From an uncultured Bacillota bacterium (GTDB lineage Bacteria; Bacillota; Clostridia; Christensenellales; UBA1242): 64,000 nucleotides of DNA. Within the stretch, counting starts at the first letter, position 1. Each line of letters begins with the position of its first letter. Location of the stretch: contig CAMRTM010000001.1 in NCBI GenBank assembly GCA_947053645.1, positions 105,583 through 169,582 on the forward strand, read 5' to 3'. Below the pieces are notes generated by a model. That model did no database searches. It saw only the letters and a program-made list of their open reading frames with translations, and was not told where the DNA came from. The position numbers and the translations under genes are program-made. Below, piece after piece: positions 6,788 to 56,205 of this stretch.

Positions 6788-7016
6788 AGATTTCTCCGCT
6801 GCGGGCTACGCCCTTCGGTCGAAATGACAGAAGGAAGGCTGAGAACAATCACTTCTATTTCGGTCGAAATGACGGGGTCTTGGGCGGTTTCTTGTGGTTG
6901 TGTATGTTGCTTTAGATTTCTCCGCTACTATCGAAAAAATGACATGGGAAATGGGCATCTGTCGAAATGACAGAAGGAGGGCTGGATACAATCACTTCCA
7001 CTTCGATTGAAATTAC
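6788..7016 (+). repeat. REP-like cluster with internal tandem duplication
   Basis: GTCGAAATGAC ends near 6820, 6865 and 6962 plus a degenerate fourth. The spacer GACAGAAGGA.GGCTG...ACAATCACTTC is repeated twice. Confidence 0.85.
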
Positions 7017-24070: not shown

Positions 24071-24802
24071 TTAACTGCTCTGTCCACTTATATTTGTGGA
24101 TACTGGAACTAGGTTAAATCCATTTTGTTGGAAATAGTCTATAATTTGCGGCAATGCCTCGGCGGTTTCCTTGGTTGGATGCATAAGAATTAAATCGCCA
24201 CCCTTAGCATTTTTAATCGCCCTTTTATATATGAGATTAGCATCATGGTCACGCCAATCAATTGTATCACGCGTCCACATTATTGTTTTATAGCCTAAAC
24301 TTTCTGCCACTGATACTGTTACCTTGTTATATGCCCCACTTGGCGGTGCAAAAAGGGTCATTTCATCGCCGGTCAGCCCTTTGACAATTTTATGGGTAGA
24401 GGAAATTTCATTTAAATTATCTTGCTCACTTAACGCATTATGGTCTTTATGATGATAACCATGGTTTGCAAGTTCATGCCCCTCTTCCTTAATCTTTTTG
24501 AGCATATCTTCCTGCATTACCGCCCATGTGCCACCTATAAAGAATGTTGTTTTTACATTTTTATCCTTTAAAGTCGTGAGCATATCATCCATATACTCTG
24601 TTCCCCAGTATACATTAATCATAAGGGAAATATTTTTTGAAGTTGTATCTCCATTATAATATACACCGCTTACAGTACTTACTGGCACATTCAAACTGCT
24701 ACCAATAATAGACGCAACCGCCACTAATGCGATAATCCCCGCTATTGCAAAATTTACAAACACTTTTCTGAACTTGAAAACTTTAAAATGTATTTTTTTC
24801 AT
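24071..24802 (-). CDS. Polysaccharide deacetylase (PdaB/YlxY-type, sporulation)
   Basis: NodB motifs HELANHGYHH, LFAPPSGAY, MWTRDTIDW and LILMHP. Motif 1 reads MINVYW rather than TFDD. Confidence 0.85.
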   Translation of the reverse strand: MKKIHFKVFKFRKVFVNFAIAGIIALVAVASIIGSSLNVPVSTVSGVYYNGDTTSKNISLMINVYWGTEYMDDMLTTLKDKNVKTTFFIGGTWAVMQEDMLKKIKEEGHELANHGYHHKDHNALSEQDNLNEISSTHKIVKGLTGDEMTLFAPPSGAYNKVTVSVAESLGYKTIMWTRDTIDWRDHDANLIYKRAIKNAKGGDLILMHPTKETAEALPQIIDYFQQNGFNLVPVSTNISGQSS

Positions 24803-24837: not shown

Positions 24838-24906
24838 CTAAGTTTACGGAAAATCGTAAGACTTTTAGCTTTTTACTTGATAAAATTGATGAAAAGGAGG
24901 TGGAAA

Positions 24907-25236
24907 ATGTATAGATACAAGGGTGAAAACTCCGCTTTTGTTAAGAGATTGAAACTGCTTATGGATGAGAACAACACTAGCATGGAAGAACTTTCTGTAA
25001 TTACTGGGATGAGTATACTTGAATGCGACAAAATGCTGAGAGGTAAGGATGTCGCTTTTGATGTTTTTATTAATCTTGTTTTACATTATAATGTGGCTTG
25101 TGATTATATTCTTGGACTTAGTGATGACAGAGAGAGAAAAAACGCTATCGCTAGATTTCTCCGCTTTGCGACCAAAGGTCGCGTCGGTCGAAATGACAAA
25201 ATAGGAGAACAGATTTCTCCGCTACGGTCGAAATGA
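24907..25236 (+). CDS. XRE-like HTH protein, copy 1; the C-terminus reads into REP DNA
   Basis: AGGAGG RBS then ATG 24907; ends in a ...HYNVACDYILGLS motif. Near-identical to 43708-43953. Confidence 0.7.
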   Translation: MYRYKGENSAFVKRLKLLMDENNTSMEELSVITGMSILECDKMLRGKDVAFDVFINLVLHYNVACDYILGLSDDRERKNAIARFLRFATKGRVGRNDKIGEQISPLRSK

Positions 25237-25349
25237 CAGTGGCTTAGCCACTTTTTTGTTTGAAATGGATTTCTCGCATGGCTAGAAATGACAATAATTA
25301 TTAAAAAGATTTCTCCGCTACGGGCTATCGCCCTTCGGTCGAAATGACA
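25153..25349 (+). repeat. REP-like cluster (4 units)
   Basis: Four AGATTTCTC...GAAATGAC units in tandem, same orientation. Confidence 0.88.
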
Positions 25350-27502: not shown

Positions 27503-27670
27503 AGATTTCTCCGCTCCACTGCGTTTCGGTCGAAATGACAAGAGTGAAGAGATTTCTCCGCTTCGCTAGATCCTTCGACTACGCTCAGGATGACAGTGAG
27601 TTAAAACAGATTTTTTAAATTTCTCCACTCCACTGCGTTTCGATCGAAATGACAGTGTCTTAGGCACTTT
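27503..27670 (+). repeat. REP-like cluster (3 units plus terminator-like hairpin)
   Basis: AGATTTCTCCGCTCCACTGCGTTTCGGTCGAAATGACA, AGATCCTTCGACTACGCTCAGGATGAC and a third unit followed by AGTGTCTTAGGCACT. Confidence 0.88.
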
Positions 27671-43291: not shown

Positions 43292-43303
43292 ATAAAATCA
43301 TTT

Positions 43304-43546
43304 TTATTTTATCTCCAAATCTTTAAAGTCAAAATATGAGCAATCAAAAAATTCAGCGAATGACAATCCCAATGCCCTGATTATTAATGCCATATTTTTA
43401 AAGTTTGGAGTTTCATATTTACAATTCAATATATCTGTCATTGTACTATGATAAAGACCCGTTTCTTGGGCAAGTTTATATTGTGTTAGTTTTTTCTCTT
43501 TTAAAAGTTCTCTTACTCTTAATGCAAATGCTTTATTCAATTTCAT
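43304..43546 (-). CDS. XRE/Cro-C1 HTH regulator
   Basis: RVRELLKEKKLTQYKLAQETGL...EFFD; paralogue of 51019 and 51285. Confidence 0.85.
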   Translation of the reverse strand: MKLNKAFALRVRELLKEKKLTQYKLAQETGLYHSTMTDILNCKYETPNFKNMALIIRALGLSFAEFFDCSYFDFKDLEIK

Positions 43547-43562
43547 ATTTCATTCCTCCTTA

Positions 43563-43579
43563 TATAGTTTTTCACTATA
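43563..43579. promoter_or_regulatory. Palindromic operator TATAGT-N5-ACTATA
   Basis: Immediately upstream of the XRE gene RBS; same geometry as the TACAGT-N5-ACTGTA sites at 55158-55461. Confidence 0.45.
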
Positions 43580-43707
43580 TATACATTTTACACTACATTT
43601 TTCTTTTAGCTATTTAAGGAAAAACGGGTATTTTGCTAGATTTTTTAAAATTTTTATGCTATAGTATTTATGGAAAACCGAAACAGTTTTCTAAAAGGAG
43701 GTGGAAA

Positions 43708-43953
43708 ATGTATAGATACAAGGGTGAAAATTCCGCTTTTGTTAAGAGATTGAAACTGCTTATGGATGAGAACAACACTAGCATAGAAGAACTTTCTGTA
43801 ATTACTGGAATGAGCATACTAGAATGCGACAAAATGCTGAGAGGTAAGGATGTCACTTTTGATGTTTTGATTAATCTTGTTTTACATTATAATGTGGCTT
43901 GTGATTTTATTCTTGGACTTAGTGTTGACAGAGAGAGAAAACGCTGTCGCTAG
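43708..43953 (+). CDS. XRE-like HTH protein, copy 2
   Basis: AGGAGG RBS then ATG 43708; near-identical to 24907. The stop codon TAG overlaps the first REP. Confidence 0.7.
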   Translation: MYRYKGENSAFVKRLKLLMDENNTSIEELSVITGMSILECDKMLRGKDVTFDVLINLVLHYNVACDFILGLSVDRERKRCR

Positions 43954-44061
43954 ATTTCTCCGCTACACTGCGTTTCGGTCGAAATGACATGGGGTGAGAA
44001 TAGATTTCTCCGCTGCGGTCGAAATGACAAATAGTAAAAACAGGCTTTGGTCGAAATGACA
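43952..44061 (+). repeat. REP-like cluster (3 units)
   Basis: Two full AGATTTCTCC...GTCGAAATGACA units and one 3' half. Confidence 0.88.
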
Positions 44062-51018: not shown

Positions 51019-51264
51019 TTAATCTAAATTTATTTTATTTAAATCTTCAAATAAATCGCTATCAAAAAATTCTAAAACCTTAATGTTTAACGCTTGTAAT
51101 ATTATGAATATTGTTTTTATATTTGCTCCATCATATCTGCCGTATAATAAAGAATACAAGGTCCCTTTACTTTGTCCCGTCATTCTTGCCAATTGATTAA
51201 TGGAAATATCTTTATCATATAATATCTCTCTTATTCTTGTAGACAGACAATTGCTCACTTTCAT
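51019..51264 (-). CDS. XRE/Cro-C1 HTH regulator
   Basis: RIREILYDKDISINQLARMTGQSKGTL...EFFDS. Confidence 0.85.
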   Translation of the reverse strand: MKVSNCLSTRIREILYDKDISINQLARMTGQSKGTLYSLLYGRYDGANIKTIFIILQALNIKVLEFFDSDLFEDLNKINLD

Positions 51265-51284
51265 ATACGCCTACTTTTATTATT

Positions 51285-51527
51285 TTAATCTATATCTAAG
51301 TTTCCCTCATTAAATAAAGGGCTAGAAAAAAACTCTTCTACTGACATCCCTAATGTACGAATAATTACAATAAGTGTAGTTAAATTTACACCTTTATATC
51401 TTGAATACATTAAAGAAGTTATCGTTCCTTTTGATAAACCAGAATTTTTCTCTAATCTATATTGTGTAATGTTTTTCTCATCCAAAACTTCTCTTATTCT
51501 TGTGACTACTGCTTGTGACACTTTCAT
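51285..51527 (-). CDS. XRE/Cro-C1 HTH regulator
   Basis: RIREVLDEKNITQYRLEKNSGLSKGTI...EFFSS; tandem paralogue of 51019. Confidence 0.85.
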   Translation of the reverse strand: MKVSQAVVTRIREVLDEKNITQYRLEKNSGLSKGTITSLMYSRYKGVNLTTLIVIIRTLGMSVEEFFSSPLFNEGNLDID

Positions 51528-51539
51528 AATATCTCCTCC

Positions 51540-51643
51540 ATGTTTTTACATGATTATATTTTAACATAGACATTTTTTTAAATAATTATGTAAAAACATA
51601 GCATTTTTAAAATTTTTGTGATACAATAGGTATGTAAAAACAT
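51540..51643. promoter_or_regulatory. Three ATGT-N4-ACAT operators in the divergent intergenic region
   Basis: ATGTTTTTACAT 51540-51551; ATGTAAAAACAT 51588-51599 and 51632-51643. Confidence 0.65.
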
Positions 51644-51656
51644 AAAGGAGTGAAAT

Positions 51657-52217
51657 ATGGAATGGAATTTAGAAAATATTAAAGAATTAATAGATTTTTT
51701 AAATGAAAAAAATAAAAAAATATCAGATACCGTAGCATGCTTTACAGGGCATAGACCACAAAAATTATCTTGGAAATTTAATGATAATGATGAGAATTAT
51801 AAGCGTGTTTGGGCTGAAACACTGGATAAAATTGAATCCGCCGTGCAAAGAGGCTATCATACTTTTATAACTGGTATGGCACTCGGTTTTGATTTAATGT
51901 GTGCCGACATTGTGTTATGGTTAAAAGATGAATATCCAGAAATAAAACTTTTAGGTGCTTTACCTTGTAAAGACCAAACTAAATACTGGAAAGAAGAAGA
52001 TAAAGAAATGTATAATAAAATACTTTCGCAACTTGACGGCATCCGTTGCATTTACGATAAATACATAGGTCCTGAATGTATGTTTGAACGCAATAGATAT
52101 ATGATTAATAATTCTTCCCTTGTTATCGCGCTATTTGACGGCAAGGCAGGCGGAACAAAACAAACCATTGAATACGCAAAAAATCAAGGGTTAAATATTG
52201 AAATCATTAAACCTTGA
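51657..52217 (+). CDS. YpsA / DUF1273 SLOG-family protein
   Basis: CFTGHRP, FITGMALGFD, ERNRYMINNSSLVIALFDG and GGTKQTIEYA. Confidence 0.9.
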   Translation: MEWNLENIKELIDFLNEKNKKISDTVACFTGHRPQKLSWKFNDNDENYKRVWAETLDKIESAVQRGYHTFITGMALGFDLMCADIVLWLKDEYPEIKLLGALPCKDQTKYWKEEDKEMYNKILSQLDGIRCIYDKYIGPECMFERNRYMINNSSLVIALFDGKAGGTKQTIEYAKNQGLNIEIIKP

Positions 52218-52221
52218 TACA

Positions 52222-52264
52222 AGATTTCTCCACTTCAGGCTATCGCCCTTCGGTCGAAATGACA
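52222..52264 (+). repeat. REP-like palindrome, single copy
   Basis: AGATTTCTCCACTTCAGGCTATCGCCCTTCGGTCGAAATGACA, 4 nt after the SLOG stop. Confidence 0.88.
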
Positions 52265-52392
52265 GTGAATAATAATTCAAAATGGTAAAGAACTAATACT
52301 ATAAACGCTATACAGCCCTAATTTGCGTCAGATTAGCCATTTTTTTATATAAAAATTTGTGAATTATTCATTTTTTTTATTTTTAATAATAT

Positions 52393-55461: not shown

Positions 55462-55477
55462 CTAAAGGAGAAAAATT

Positions 55478-55669
55478 ATGAAAAAATGTTGTTTTACAGG
55501 ACACAGACCCAAAAGTTTACCTTGGGGGTACAATGAAAATAGTTTAAAATGTATTGCTTTTAAAAAACAGTTAAGAAATGTTATCAATAATATCATTGAT
55601 AACGAAGGTGCAACTTACTTTATCACTGGTATGGCTAAGGTTATCATTATTGAAATAAAAAGAAACTGA
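55478..55669 (+). pseudogene. Truncated YpsA/DUF1273 SLOG gene
   Basis: CFTGHRP...YFITGMA, then unrelated sequence and a stop at 63 aa; no continuation seen before the REP cluster. Confidence 0.8.
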
Positions 55670-55692
55670 AGTTCAGTTTCTTTTTCTATTTT

Positions 55693-56173
55693 AGATACAC
55701 TCCGCTCCACTCGCTCACGCTCGTTTCGGTCGGTATGACAGGAGTGGTATAAATACGCTCGCACTCGTTTCGGTCGGTATGACAGGAGTGGTATAAAGAG
55801 ATAGATTTCTCCGCTACGGGATTTGACCTTCGGTCGAAATGACAAAGGAGGAGAAACATGAACTTCGGTCGAAATGACAGTGCCTTAGGCACTTTGTTAC
55901 GCTTCGCTAGATCCCTCCGCTACGGTCGGGATGACAAAAGAAAAAATGGTCGGGATGACAAAAGAAAAAAATGGTCGGTTTGACAAAAGGAAAAATGGTC
56001 GGGATGACAATGGTAGGAGAAAAATAATCCGCTTGAAAAGTTGCGACAAATCGCCAACGGAGTGCGATTTCGTTTGGTCGCAAGAGACAAGCAAGGCGGT
56101 AAGGTCGGAAAAATTTATGCAAGTAAATTTTAAGACCATTTAGCCTTTGCGAAGTCGATCAGTCGGTATGACA
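55693..56173 (+). repeat. Large REP-like cluster including a 24-25 bp tandem repeat
   Basis: GGTCGGTATGACA, GGTCGAAATGACA and GGTCGGGATGACA variants; tandem GGTCGGGATGACAAAAGAAAAAAT at 55924-56010. Confidence 0.88.
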
Positions 56174-56205
56174 GGAAGGTTTATAGGGAGGACAATAGTA
56201 TTCTT

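Follow-up and report, generated by a model that had tools for sequence, protein, structure and literature searches.

The window, a stretch of 64,000 nucleotides from an uncultured member of the Christensenellales, contains two near-identical copies of a small helix-turn-helix (HTH) gene, each of which runs into a cluster of short hairpin repeats (REPs). Copy 1 lies at locus 1, where the gene order is deacetylase-HTH-pnp, and copy 2 lies at locus 2, where the order is valS-HTH-SBP (SBP is an ABC substrate-binding gene). Coordinates for both loci and for related features are collected in Table 1. The assembly is of metagenome style, with 19 contigs (C1, C2 and so on) and a length of 874 kb (0.87 Mb), and is ~95% complete.

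Table 1. Positions of the two copies, their repeats and related features in the window
Feature	Position	Strand	Basis or remark
Polysaccharide deacetylase gene, divergent neighbour of copy 1	24071..24802	-	PF01522
Copy 1 shared unit: SD, HTH ORF, REP1, spacer, REP2	24892..25238	+	alignment; synteny
Copy 1 REP1	25152-25198	+	within shared unit
Copy 1 REP2	25211-25238	+	within shared unit
Rest of repeat cluster between HTH gene and pnp	25238..25349	+	
Terminator hairpin in locus-1 cluster	25238-25252		
Degenerate repeat unit in locus-1 cluster	25267-25293		
REP3 in locus-1 cluster	25307-25349		
Strain-specific block: XRE HTH_26 gene (43304-43546) and divergent promoter region	43297..43694	-	
Copy 2 shared unit: SD, HTH ORF, REP1, spacer, REP2	43693..44029	+	alignment
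Copy 2 REP1	43951-43989	+	within shared unit
Copy 2 REP2	44002-44029	+	within shared unit
Locus-2 array: extra spacer and right-arm unit	44030..44061	+	
Reference module: two XRE genes, YpsA/SLOG gene, repeat unit	51019..52265		
Module XRE genes	51019-51264 and 51285-51527	-	
Module YpsA/SLOG gene	51657-52217	+	
Module repeat unit	52221-52265		4 nt after YpsA stop
Second near-identical duplicate: internally deleted YpsA and repeat-rich DNA	55464..56179	+	97-98% identical to C8:31377-32604

Extent of the duplicate and its gene family

Alignment and a genome search gave 96% identity between 24892-25165 and 43693-43965, with 10 substitutions and one 2-nt indel, which bears out an initial annotation that had counted about nine substitutions by eye. 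The left edge of the identity is AAAAGGAGGTGG, the SD sequence, at 24892 and 43693. DNA 5' of the SD is unrelated between the copies and aligns locally with a score no better than that of shuffled sequences, in keeping with the annotation's claim that identity starts at the ribosome-binding site and that the upstream DNA differs. On the right, identity had been described as running into the first REP; it does reach REP1, but its extent had been understated, and a whole-genome self-comparison (874 kb) followed the homology through REP1, a 12-nt spacer and REP2 up to 25238 and 44029. The full shared unit measures 347 bp at copy 1 and 337 bp at copy 2 (90.2% identity), and the central hairpin of REP1 is unlike between the two. 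Its left junction is sharp at AAAGGAGG, and on the right it stops exactly where a repeat right arm ends.

The two reading frames end differently. Copy 1 has a run of six A (25137-25142) that puts its frame through both repeats, giving an ORF of 109 aa plus stop (24907-25236), and copy 2 has a run of four A (43938-43941) and an ORF of 81 aa (43708-43953) whose stop is the TAG that opens REP1. The initial annotation had both runs and the 81-aa product right, but gave the read-through product as 110 aa. Wherever the run is covered, the nine other copies (copy 2 and those from other assemblies, at either locus) have four A, and the eight of them with a complete ORF encode 81 aa. By this comparison, the 109-aa read-through form is private to this assembly.

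The duplicated stretch is itself without a promoter, as had been claimed, though an extended -10-like site of its own can be read in the sequence ahead of each resident copy. For copy 1 this site is TGaTAAAAT at 24881-24886, read by eye in the 105-bp spacer between this gene and the deacetylase. A promoter scan upstream of both copies did not call these sites, and a search for residual similarity among the three upstream contexts of the HTH gene found none. The proposed anatomy of ribosome-binding site, ORF and palindrome held, with similar copies standing behind unrelated upstream DNA in several contexts.

The duplicated gene is a small XRE-type HTH regulator. Pfam matches of copy 2 to HTH_26 and HTH_3 remained below threshold (17.3 bits, with the cut-off at 22) and no HTH match was obtained for copy 1, but a paralogue on C3 that is 50% identical reached 35.2 for HTH_3 against a cut-off of 23. 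The AlphaFold model of the protein (pLDDT 74) has four helices and a helical HTH fold resembling solved XRE proteins. All 50 of the listed PDB matches from Foldseek were XRE-type except one integrative-model entry, and they included DdrO, C-proteins, SinR, HipB and ImmR, with probabilities of 0.82-0.99 and weak E-values (0.05-0.24). The genome holds four members of the family: the two near-identical copies, the C3 copy, and C1:171440-171703, which is 49% identical and lies just beyond the window. Exact look-up of both window proteins gave no match, nor did a metagenome protein scan or an exact 27-mer scan, and their close relatives were reached via homologue search. At gathering thresholds, Rfam found only tRNA in the window.

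Other small HTH genes in the order show related patterns of placement. A second, unrelated family of 81 aa is present in inverted orientation at C2:76786-77074 and C2:105431-105710 (79% identical), and both of these copies have a repeat at the stop or 4 nt after it; a third copy (C5:50342-50606) is free of repeats and stops at a native TAG. In another Christensenellales species, an 80-aa XRE paralogue stands on different sides of a conserved XRE gene in two strains, after it in one and before it in the other (L180 vs L182), and a remnant of the 3' end of the moved paralogue was left at the old place. Because its position differs between these strains and a remnant was left, small HTH genes would seem to be reshuffled generally within the order.

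Occupancy of the loci and adjacent duplicates

Comparison of filled and empty sites separates the histories of the two loci. Locus 1 is filled and syntenic in both the nearest congener (G002) and the sister species (G049), and on this synteny copy 1 is at the ancestral position. In the nearest congener, the gene between deacetylase and pnp is 37% identical; it carries no repeat, and its tail and terminator are its own. Locus 2 is empty there, with 125 bp from valS to SBP that contain neither an HTH gene nor a repeat; by this comparison, copy 2 is in a derived insertion.

Contigs from conspecific strains showed locus 1 occupied in L025 and L186 and locus 2 occupied in L027-L030 and L185, and one sample holds both loci (L025 and L185). 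These contigs, which include one of 13 kb and one of 30 kb, have flanks up to 99.7% identical to the window. Since the same two loci are used in all conspecific assemblies found, the HTH gene is not actively hopping. The window and L185 have locus-2 arrays of different composition although their flanks are 99% identical, and array composition also varies among L025-L030. A further contig of 1215 bp (L026, JGI 3300006149) joins tRNA-Trp and 126 bp of locus-2 upstream DNA, with a locus-2-type 5' ORF, to locus-1 DNA that is 99.4% identical to L025; it represents either a rearranged strain or an assembly chimera.

Immediately upstream of copy 2, the window carries a 398-bp XRE block whose right junction lies at the SD of this copy. 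In other strains, one of them with flanks that are 99.7% identical, its place is taken by 95 unrelated bp. Other Christensenellales have a conserved YpsA(SLOG)<->XRE module, and the block is the orthologue of the XRE gene and divergent promoter of that module. The family of the XRE protein encoded in the block comprises >450 clusters at 80-88% identity. The window also has a complete module of this kind, which serves as the reference (Table 1). Because of this orthology, the HTH ORF at locus 2 of this strain fills the slot of the YpsA ORF, from SD to repeat.

A YpsA gene is also the subject of the second near-identical duplicate, in which identity again extends from the SD to a repeat right arm. 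The window copy encodes 63 aa, and the C8 copy is full length with an in-frame TGA at a codon for which Trp is expected in relatives. An opposite-strand XRE gene lies on C8 between two copies of the repeat start ATTTTAGATAC. No dispersed duplicates in the genome other than the HTH and YpsA pairs exceed 90% identity, and both pairs abut repeat arrays; surface-protein duplicates on C2 and C7, taken as a control, end inside coding DNA and not at an SD. Candidate cases of exchange of array-adjacent genes are these two duplicates and the locus-2 XRE block, a sample too small for a rate.

The hairpin repeats

The repeat unit reads TAG-ATTTC-T-CCG-(loop or nested hairpin)-CGG-TC-GAAAT-GACA. Its predicted fold has the same two stems, of 5 bp and 3 bp, and tandem units have a period of 29-33 nt. 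The window has 15 matches to the GGTCGAAATGACA arm, against 0.05 expected, and units are seen for example at 6817-6972, 27528-27654, 34111, 52252 and 55832-55879. Genome-wide, 89 intergenic right arms form 34 clusters. Three subfamilies have covarying arms: ATTTC/GAAAT (40 units), ATCCC/GGGAT (8) and ATACAC/GGTAT (3).

The repeats are strongly oriented with respect to replication. Right arms lie on the C-rich (lagging) strand in 86 of 89 instances, and 32 of the 34 clusters do so (p = 7e-8); the bias also holds against the gene-strand bias of ~75% (p = 0.004), and repeats in the sister species show the same one. The two off-strand clusters (C2:77061 and C13:13699) come after a co-oriented upstream gene. 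GC skew changes sign near C1:20-30 kb, outside the window, at what would be the replication origin or terminus, and all repeats of C1 lie beyond that point.

Across the whole genome, the 12 nt that follow the ..ATGACA of right arms are purine-rich with almost no C, and an SD-like 4-mer occurs in 38 of 96 of these 3' flanks (40%, against a background of 9%). Such SD-like flanks could be a source of microhomology.

The distribution of the repeat is patchy. This genome has 72 occurrences of the exact arm, and elsewhere among 40 relatives the number is 0-1; the hairpin is absent in 24 congeners of this genome. Even so, at least 119 stretches carry the full pattern, with sources that include Clostridia, Planctomycetota, Bacteroidota, Patescibacteria and Chloroflexota, and the hairpin GATTTCTCCGC..GTCGAAATGACA is present in 9-198 copies per genome in the 12 carriers examined (G041-G052). 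There it often appears as convergent pairs ~100 bp apart. A literature search on the repeat sequence found no relevant paper. Elsewhere in the assembly, ~380 bp of non-coding, hairpin-rich DNA are shared between C6:10911-11285 and C11:2102-2453 at 80% identity, with one copy directly before a repeat cluster, and may represent a small RNA or another repeat module.

Origin of the near-identity and comparison with known systems

The sister species, whose syntenic DNA is ~80% identical to the window, holds two paralogues that have diverged. Its locus-1 gene, which retains its own C-terminal tail and terminator, is 77% identical to the window copies at the nucleotide level. Its second copy is found at an end of the sister species' own contig C11, downstream of ung, a third context in which the window's genome has no HTH gene; this copy shares 88-89% identity with the window copies and 72% with the locus-1 gene of its own genome. 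Conservation of the SD and the first ~40 nt of the ORF extends to both genes of this species and, more loosely, to the third paralogue.

Polymorphism within the window's species is mosaic. Among 10 copies from several strains and both loci there are 24 variable sites, and 40 of the 105 informative site pairs fail the four-gamete test. GAGAGAG is common to both window copies and absent in 7 of 8 other copies (L185 has it), and the spacer between the REPs is alike at both loci in other strains. These mosaic sites between loci and strains are suggestive of exchange between loci; they are only suggestive because short, low-coverage metagenome contigs of copies that are 96% identical may add false mosaics.

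Considering these data together, we assign a probability of roughly 55% to the reading that old paralogues have been homogenised by gene conversion in a repeat setting, and that no cassette was moved by a transposase. The two loci would then be paralogues older than their 96% identity suggests, made alike in the window's species by ectopic homologous recombination. The conversion tract would extend from the SD and opening codons on the left, a segment that all of the family has conserved, to the repeat units common to both loci on the right; because the tract would be bounded in this way, identity would start exactly at the SD and fade in the repeats. We infer that locus-2-type sequence was copied into locus 1 and that the arrays act as anchors, that is, as portable and fast-changing homology like the NIME/dRS3 arrays of Neisseria. 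Each copy would be read from whatever promoter stands upstream. Gene conversion accounts for the near-identity and its boundaries better than an HUH cassette mechanism would, but it leaves several points unexplained. A high-identity copy is found in different places (between valS and SBP, 3' of ung in the sister species, and by tRNA-Trp in L026), each of these unlike contexts is joined at or near the SD, and YpsA, a second gene, has the same SD-to-repeat anatomy. Some of the mosaic sites may also be assembly artefacts from short, low-coverage contigs, and the data could alternatively be read as a recent duplication in the window's species with transfer of a copy into the sister species.

This alternative, a single recent segmental duplication that copied the stretch from SD to REP2 out of locus 1 into the valS-SBP spacer, is possible though clearly less probable than gene conversion. 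It would have used repeat homology on one side and an illegitimate microhomology join at the SD on the other, and could have proceeded by template switching at a stalled fork or by homology-facilitated illegitimate recombination of incoming DNA; the second copy of the sister species would be a later transfer. The sharp left junction and the right end exactly after a repeat right arm are what such an event should leave, the YpsA duplicate has the same ends, and the excess of SD-like sequence after right arms (40% vs 9%) offers the microhomology. However, the locus-2 insertion spans ~750 bp, of which only ~340 bp come from locus 1, so a clean one-step copy is not what happened. The 72% identity between the two genes of the sister species also points to an older duplication, and the mosaic sites point to continuing exchange.

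We regard as doubtful a dedicated process in which an enzyme with single-stranded hairpins as its substrate, such as an Ssn-type GIY-YIG nuclease or a dRS3-type recombinase, would shuffle units of SD, ORF and hairpin from one promoter to another; it would be encoded in the missing 5% of the genome or act in trans. SD junctions do recur, at copy 1 vs copy 2, the XRE-block swap, the ung-linked copy of the sister species and the YpsA pair, and right ends lie at repeat right arms. The orientation of 32 of 34 clusters by replication strand, which extends to the sister species, fits a single-strand process, and the hairpin is built like NTS, the target of SsnA. Against this, a search of the assembly for a single-domain GIY-YIG ssn gene (PF01541) returned only UvrC (a 610-aa frame) and a weak 14-bit match in a 217-aa protein with no repeats nearby, and no Y1 gene was found in it. 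A crude motif search for Ssn-like ORFs at 139 repeat-bearing loci found none; these loci are random repeat sites, which makes the search uninformative. The pattern is confined to two gene families, and the same two loci are used in every strain seen. Our low rating of a dedicated mechanism reflects the short 5' leaders, since selection alone may hold viable junctions near the SD.

An extension of this idea, to which we give similarly little credence, is that NTS-like hairpin arrays in small-genome gut Christensenellales form an integrase-free gene-shuffling system that swaps ORFs between resident promoters. In single-stranded form, units of SD, small ORF and hairpin (XRE, YpsA/SLOG) would undergo cutting or pairing at the hairpin and would then be rejoined at the purine-rich, SD-like sequence that also comes after hairpins. 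If true, this would be a NIME-like mechanism outside Neisseria.

A 338-aa reverse transcriptase with a YADD motif (RVT_1, 83 bits) is encoded at C8:14200-16300 (L187) next to a gene with a phosphoribosyltransferase-like motif, and the two look like a retron-type defence pair. RNA-mediated copying of the HTH gene is unlikely, as this reverse transcriptase is retron-like and the shared unit stops before the terminator hairpin.

The initial annotation had suggested that a REP-associated HUH transposase mobilised the gene, that is, that a RAYT/HUH (Y1) enzyme recognises the REP and moves the adjacent ORF as a cassette. We consider this highly improbable. The many intergenic hairpins and their strand bias are as expected for single-strand transposition, but a search of the ~95% complete assembly for a RAYT/TnpA(REP) gene gave no PF01797 match above the cut-off (best 15.8 bits vs 23), and a weak Y1 match on C6 proved spurious, as it lies inside a surface-protein ORF. 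Extended to 40 relatives and 12 repeat-bearing genomes, the search showed no link between Y1 genes and the repeat. Four of the 12 other repeat-rich genomes also have no PF01797, and the two of 24 congeners with a Y1 gene are both without this repeat. Among 12 Y1 loci fetched from repeat-bearing genomes, none is flanked by the repeat; at one (L156) repeat units lie ~1.1 kb off, beyond an intervening gene, and the other 11 have none. The units here also lack a left-end hairpin, inverted doublets and a conserved 5' GTAG, and the loci are fixed. Taken alone, the twin gene would be an ordinary case of paralogues that recombination keeps similar, and the transposase idea can be dropped.

Finally, that one gene was placed twice in this metagenome-assembled genome deserves next to no weight in spite of its 19-contig, metagenome-style assembly: the copies differ at 10 sites and have unlike flanks on one contig, and misassembly is excluded because each locus was recovered separately with the same flanks in independent assemblies from other samples, including the 13-kb and 30-kb contigs.

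Concerted evolution of dispersed paralogues by gene conversion is a general bacterial phenomenon. The case described here resembles it in that near-identity is confined to a homologous tract, polymorphism is mosaic and the paralogues of a sister species are divergent; it differs in that one tract end lies in a dispersed repeat family and not in the gene. Integron cassettes are likewise promoterless ORFs with their own SD, followed by an imperfect palindrome. The repeats here, however, have no attC-type R/L boxes, their arms (AGATTTC/GAAATGACA) are without a GTTRRRY core, and each site has one ORF instead of a cassette array behind a common promoter.

With REP/BIME sequences, the repeats share that they are short, clustered extragenic palindromes with stem-covarying subfamilies (Quentin et al. 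2018, PMC6006769). In contrast to RAYT-associated systems, there is no Y1 gene (PF01797), no conserved 5' GTAG and no REPINs or BIMEs here: all units within a cluster point in the same direction, and inverted REP doublets were not found. REP/RAYT systems have only the hairpin nature in common with these repeats.

A closer structural match is given by NTS/SRM sequences, hairpin targets of SsnA, a single-domain GIY-YIG ssDNA nuclease of ~94 aa (Chenal et al. 2025, PMC11893778). SRMs number from tens to hundreds per genome and are found in many phyla, and the ssn gene is usually flanked by the motif (PMC11893778). As in the NTS consensus of that study, the hairpin here is oriented, with a conserved, non-palindromic GTCAT(T) flank 5' of the stem and AATC at the 3' side; on the minus strand it reads TGTCATTTCGACCG..CGGAGAAATCT, compared with CGTCATTCCCGCG..GCGGGAATC for NTS. 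However, the published degenerate SRM pattern has 1 match in the genome against 0-1 in shuffled sequences, it matches none of three representative units while matching the NTS control, and this assembly has no ssn-like gene. At most, the repeat may work like an SRM.

The best analogue appears to be the Neisseria NIME array, in which dRS3 hairpins and RS spacers form strain-variable arrays proposed to promote the exchange of adjacent genes by serving as homology for recombination (Bentley et al. 2007, PMC1797815). Cassette-like minimal mobile elements were described together with these arrays, which were stated not to have been seen outside Neisseria (PMC1797815). Here too, intergenic hairpin arrays have short variable spacers and a composition that differs between close strains, and alternative small genes occupy one slot among strains. 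The differences are that the host is a Gram-positive-type gut Clostridia with a 0.87-Mb genome, a different hairpin sequence and undocumented natural transformation, and that the units are strictly oriented by replication strand. The setting is a small genome with ~90 strand-oriented hairpins and no recognisable enzyme for them, and the same hairpin is found in many phyla. Between near-identical strains, the fastest-changing DNA is located exactly at these arrays and at the SD of the adjacent small genes. Should the arrays promote exchange of neighbouring genes as has been proposed for the NIMEs of Neisseria, the proposal could be tested in another lineage that is unrelated to the first.
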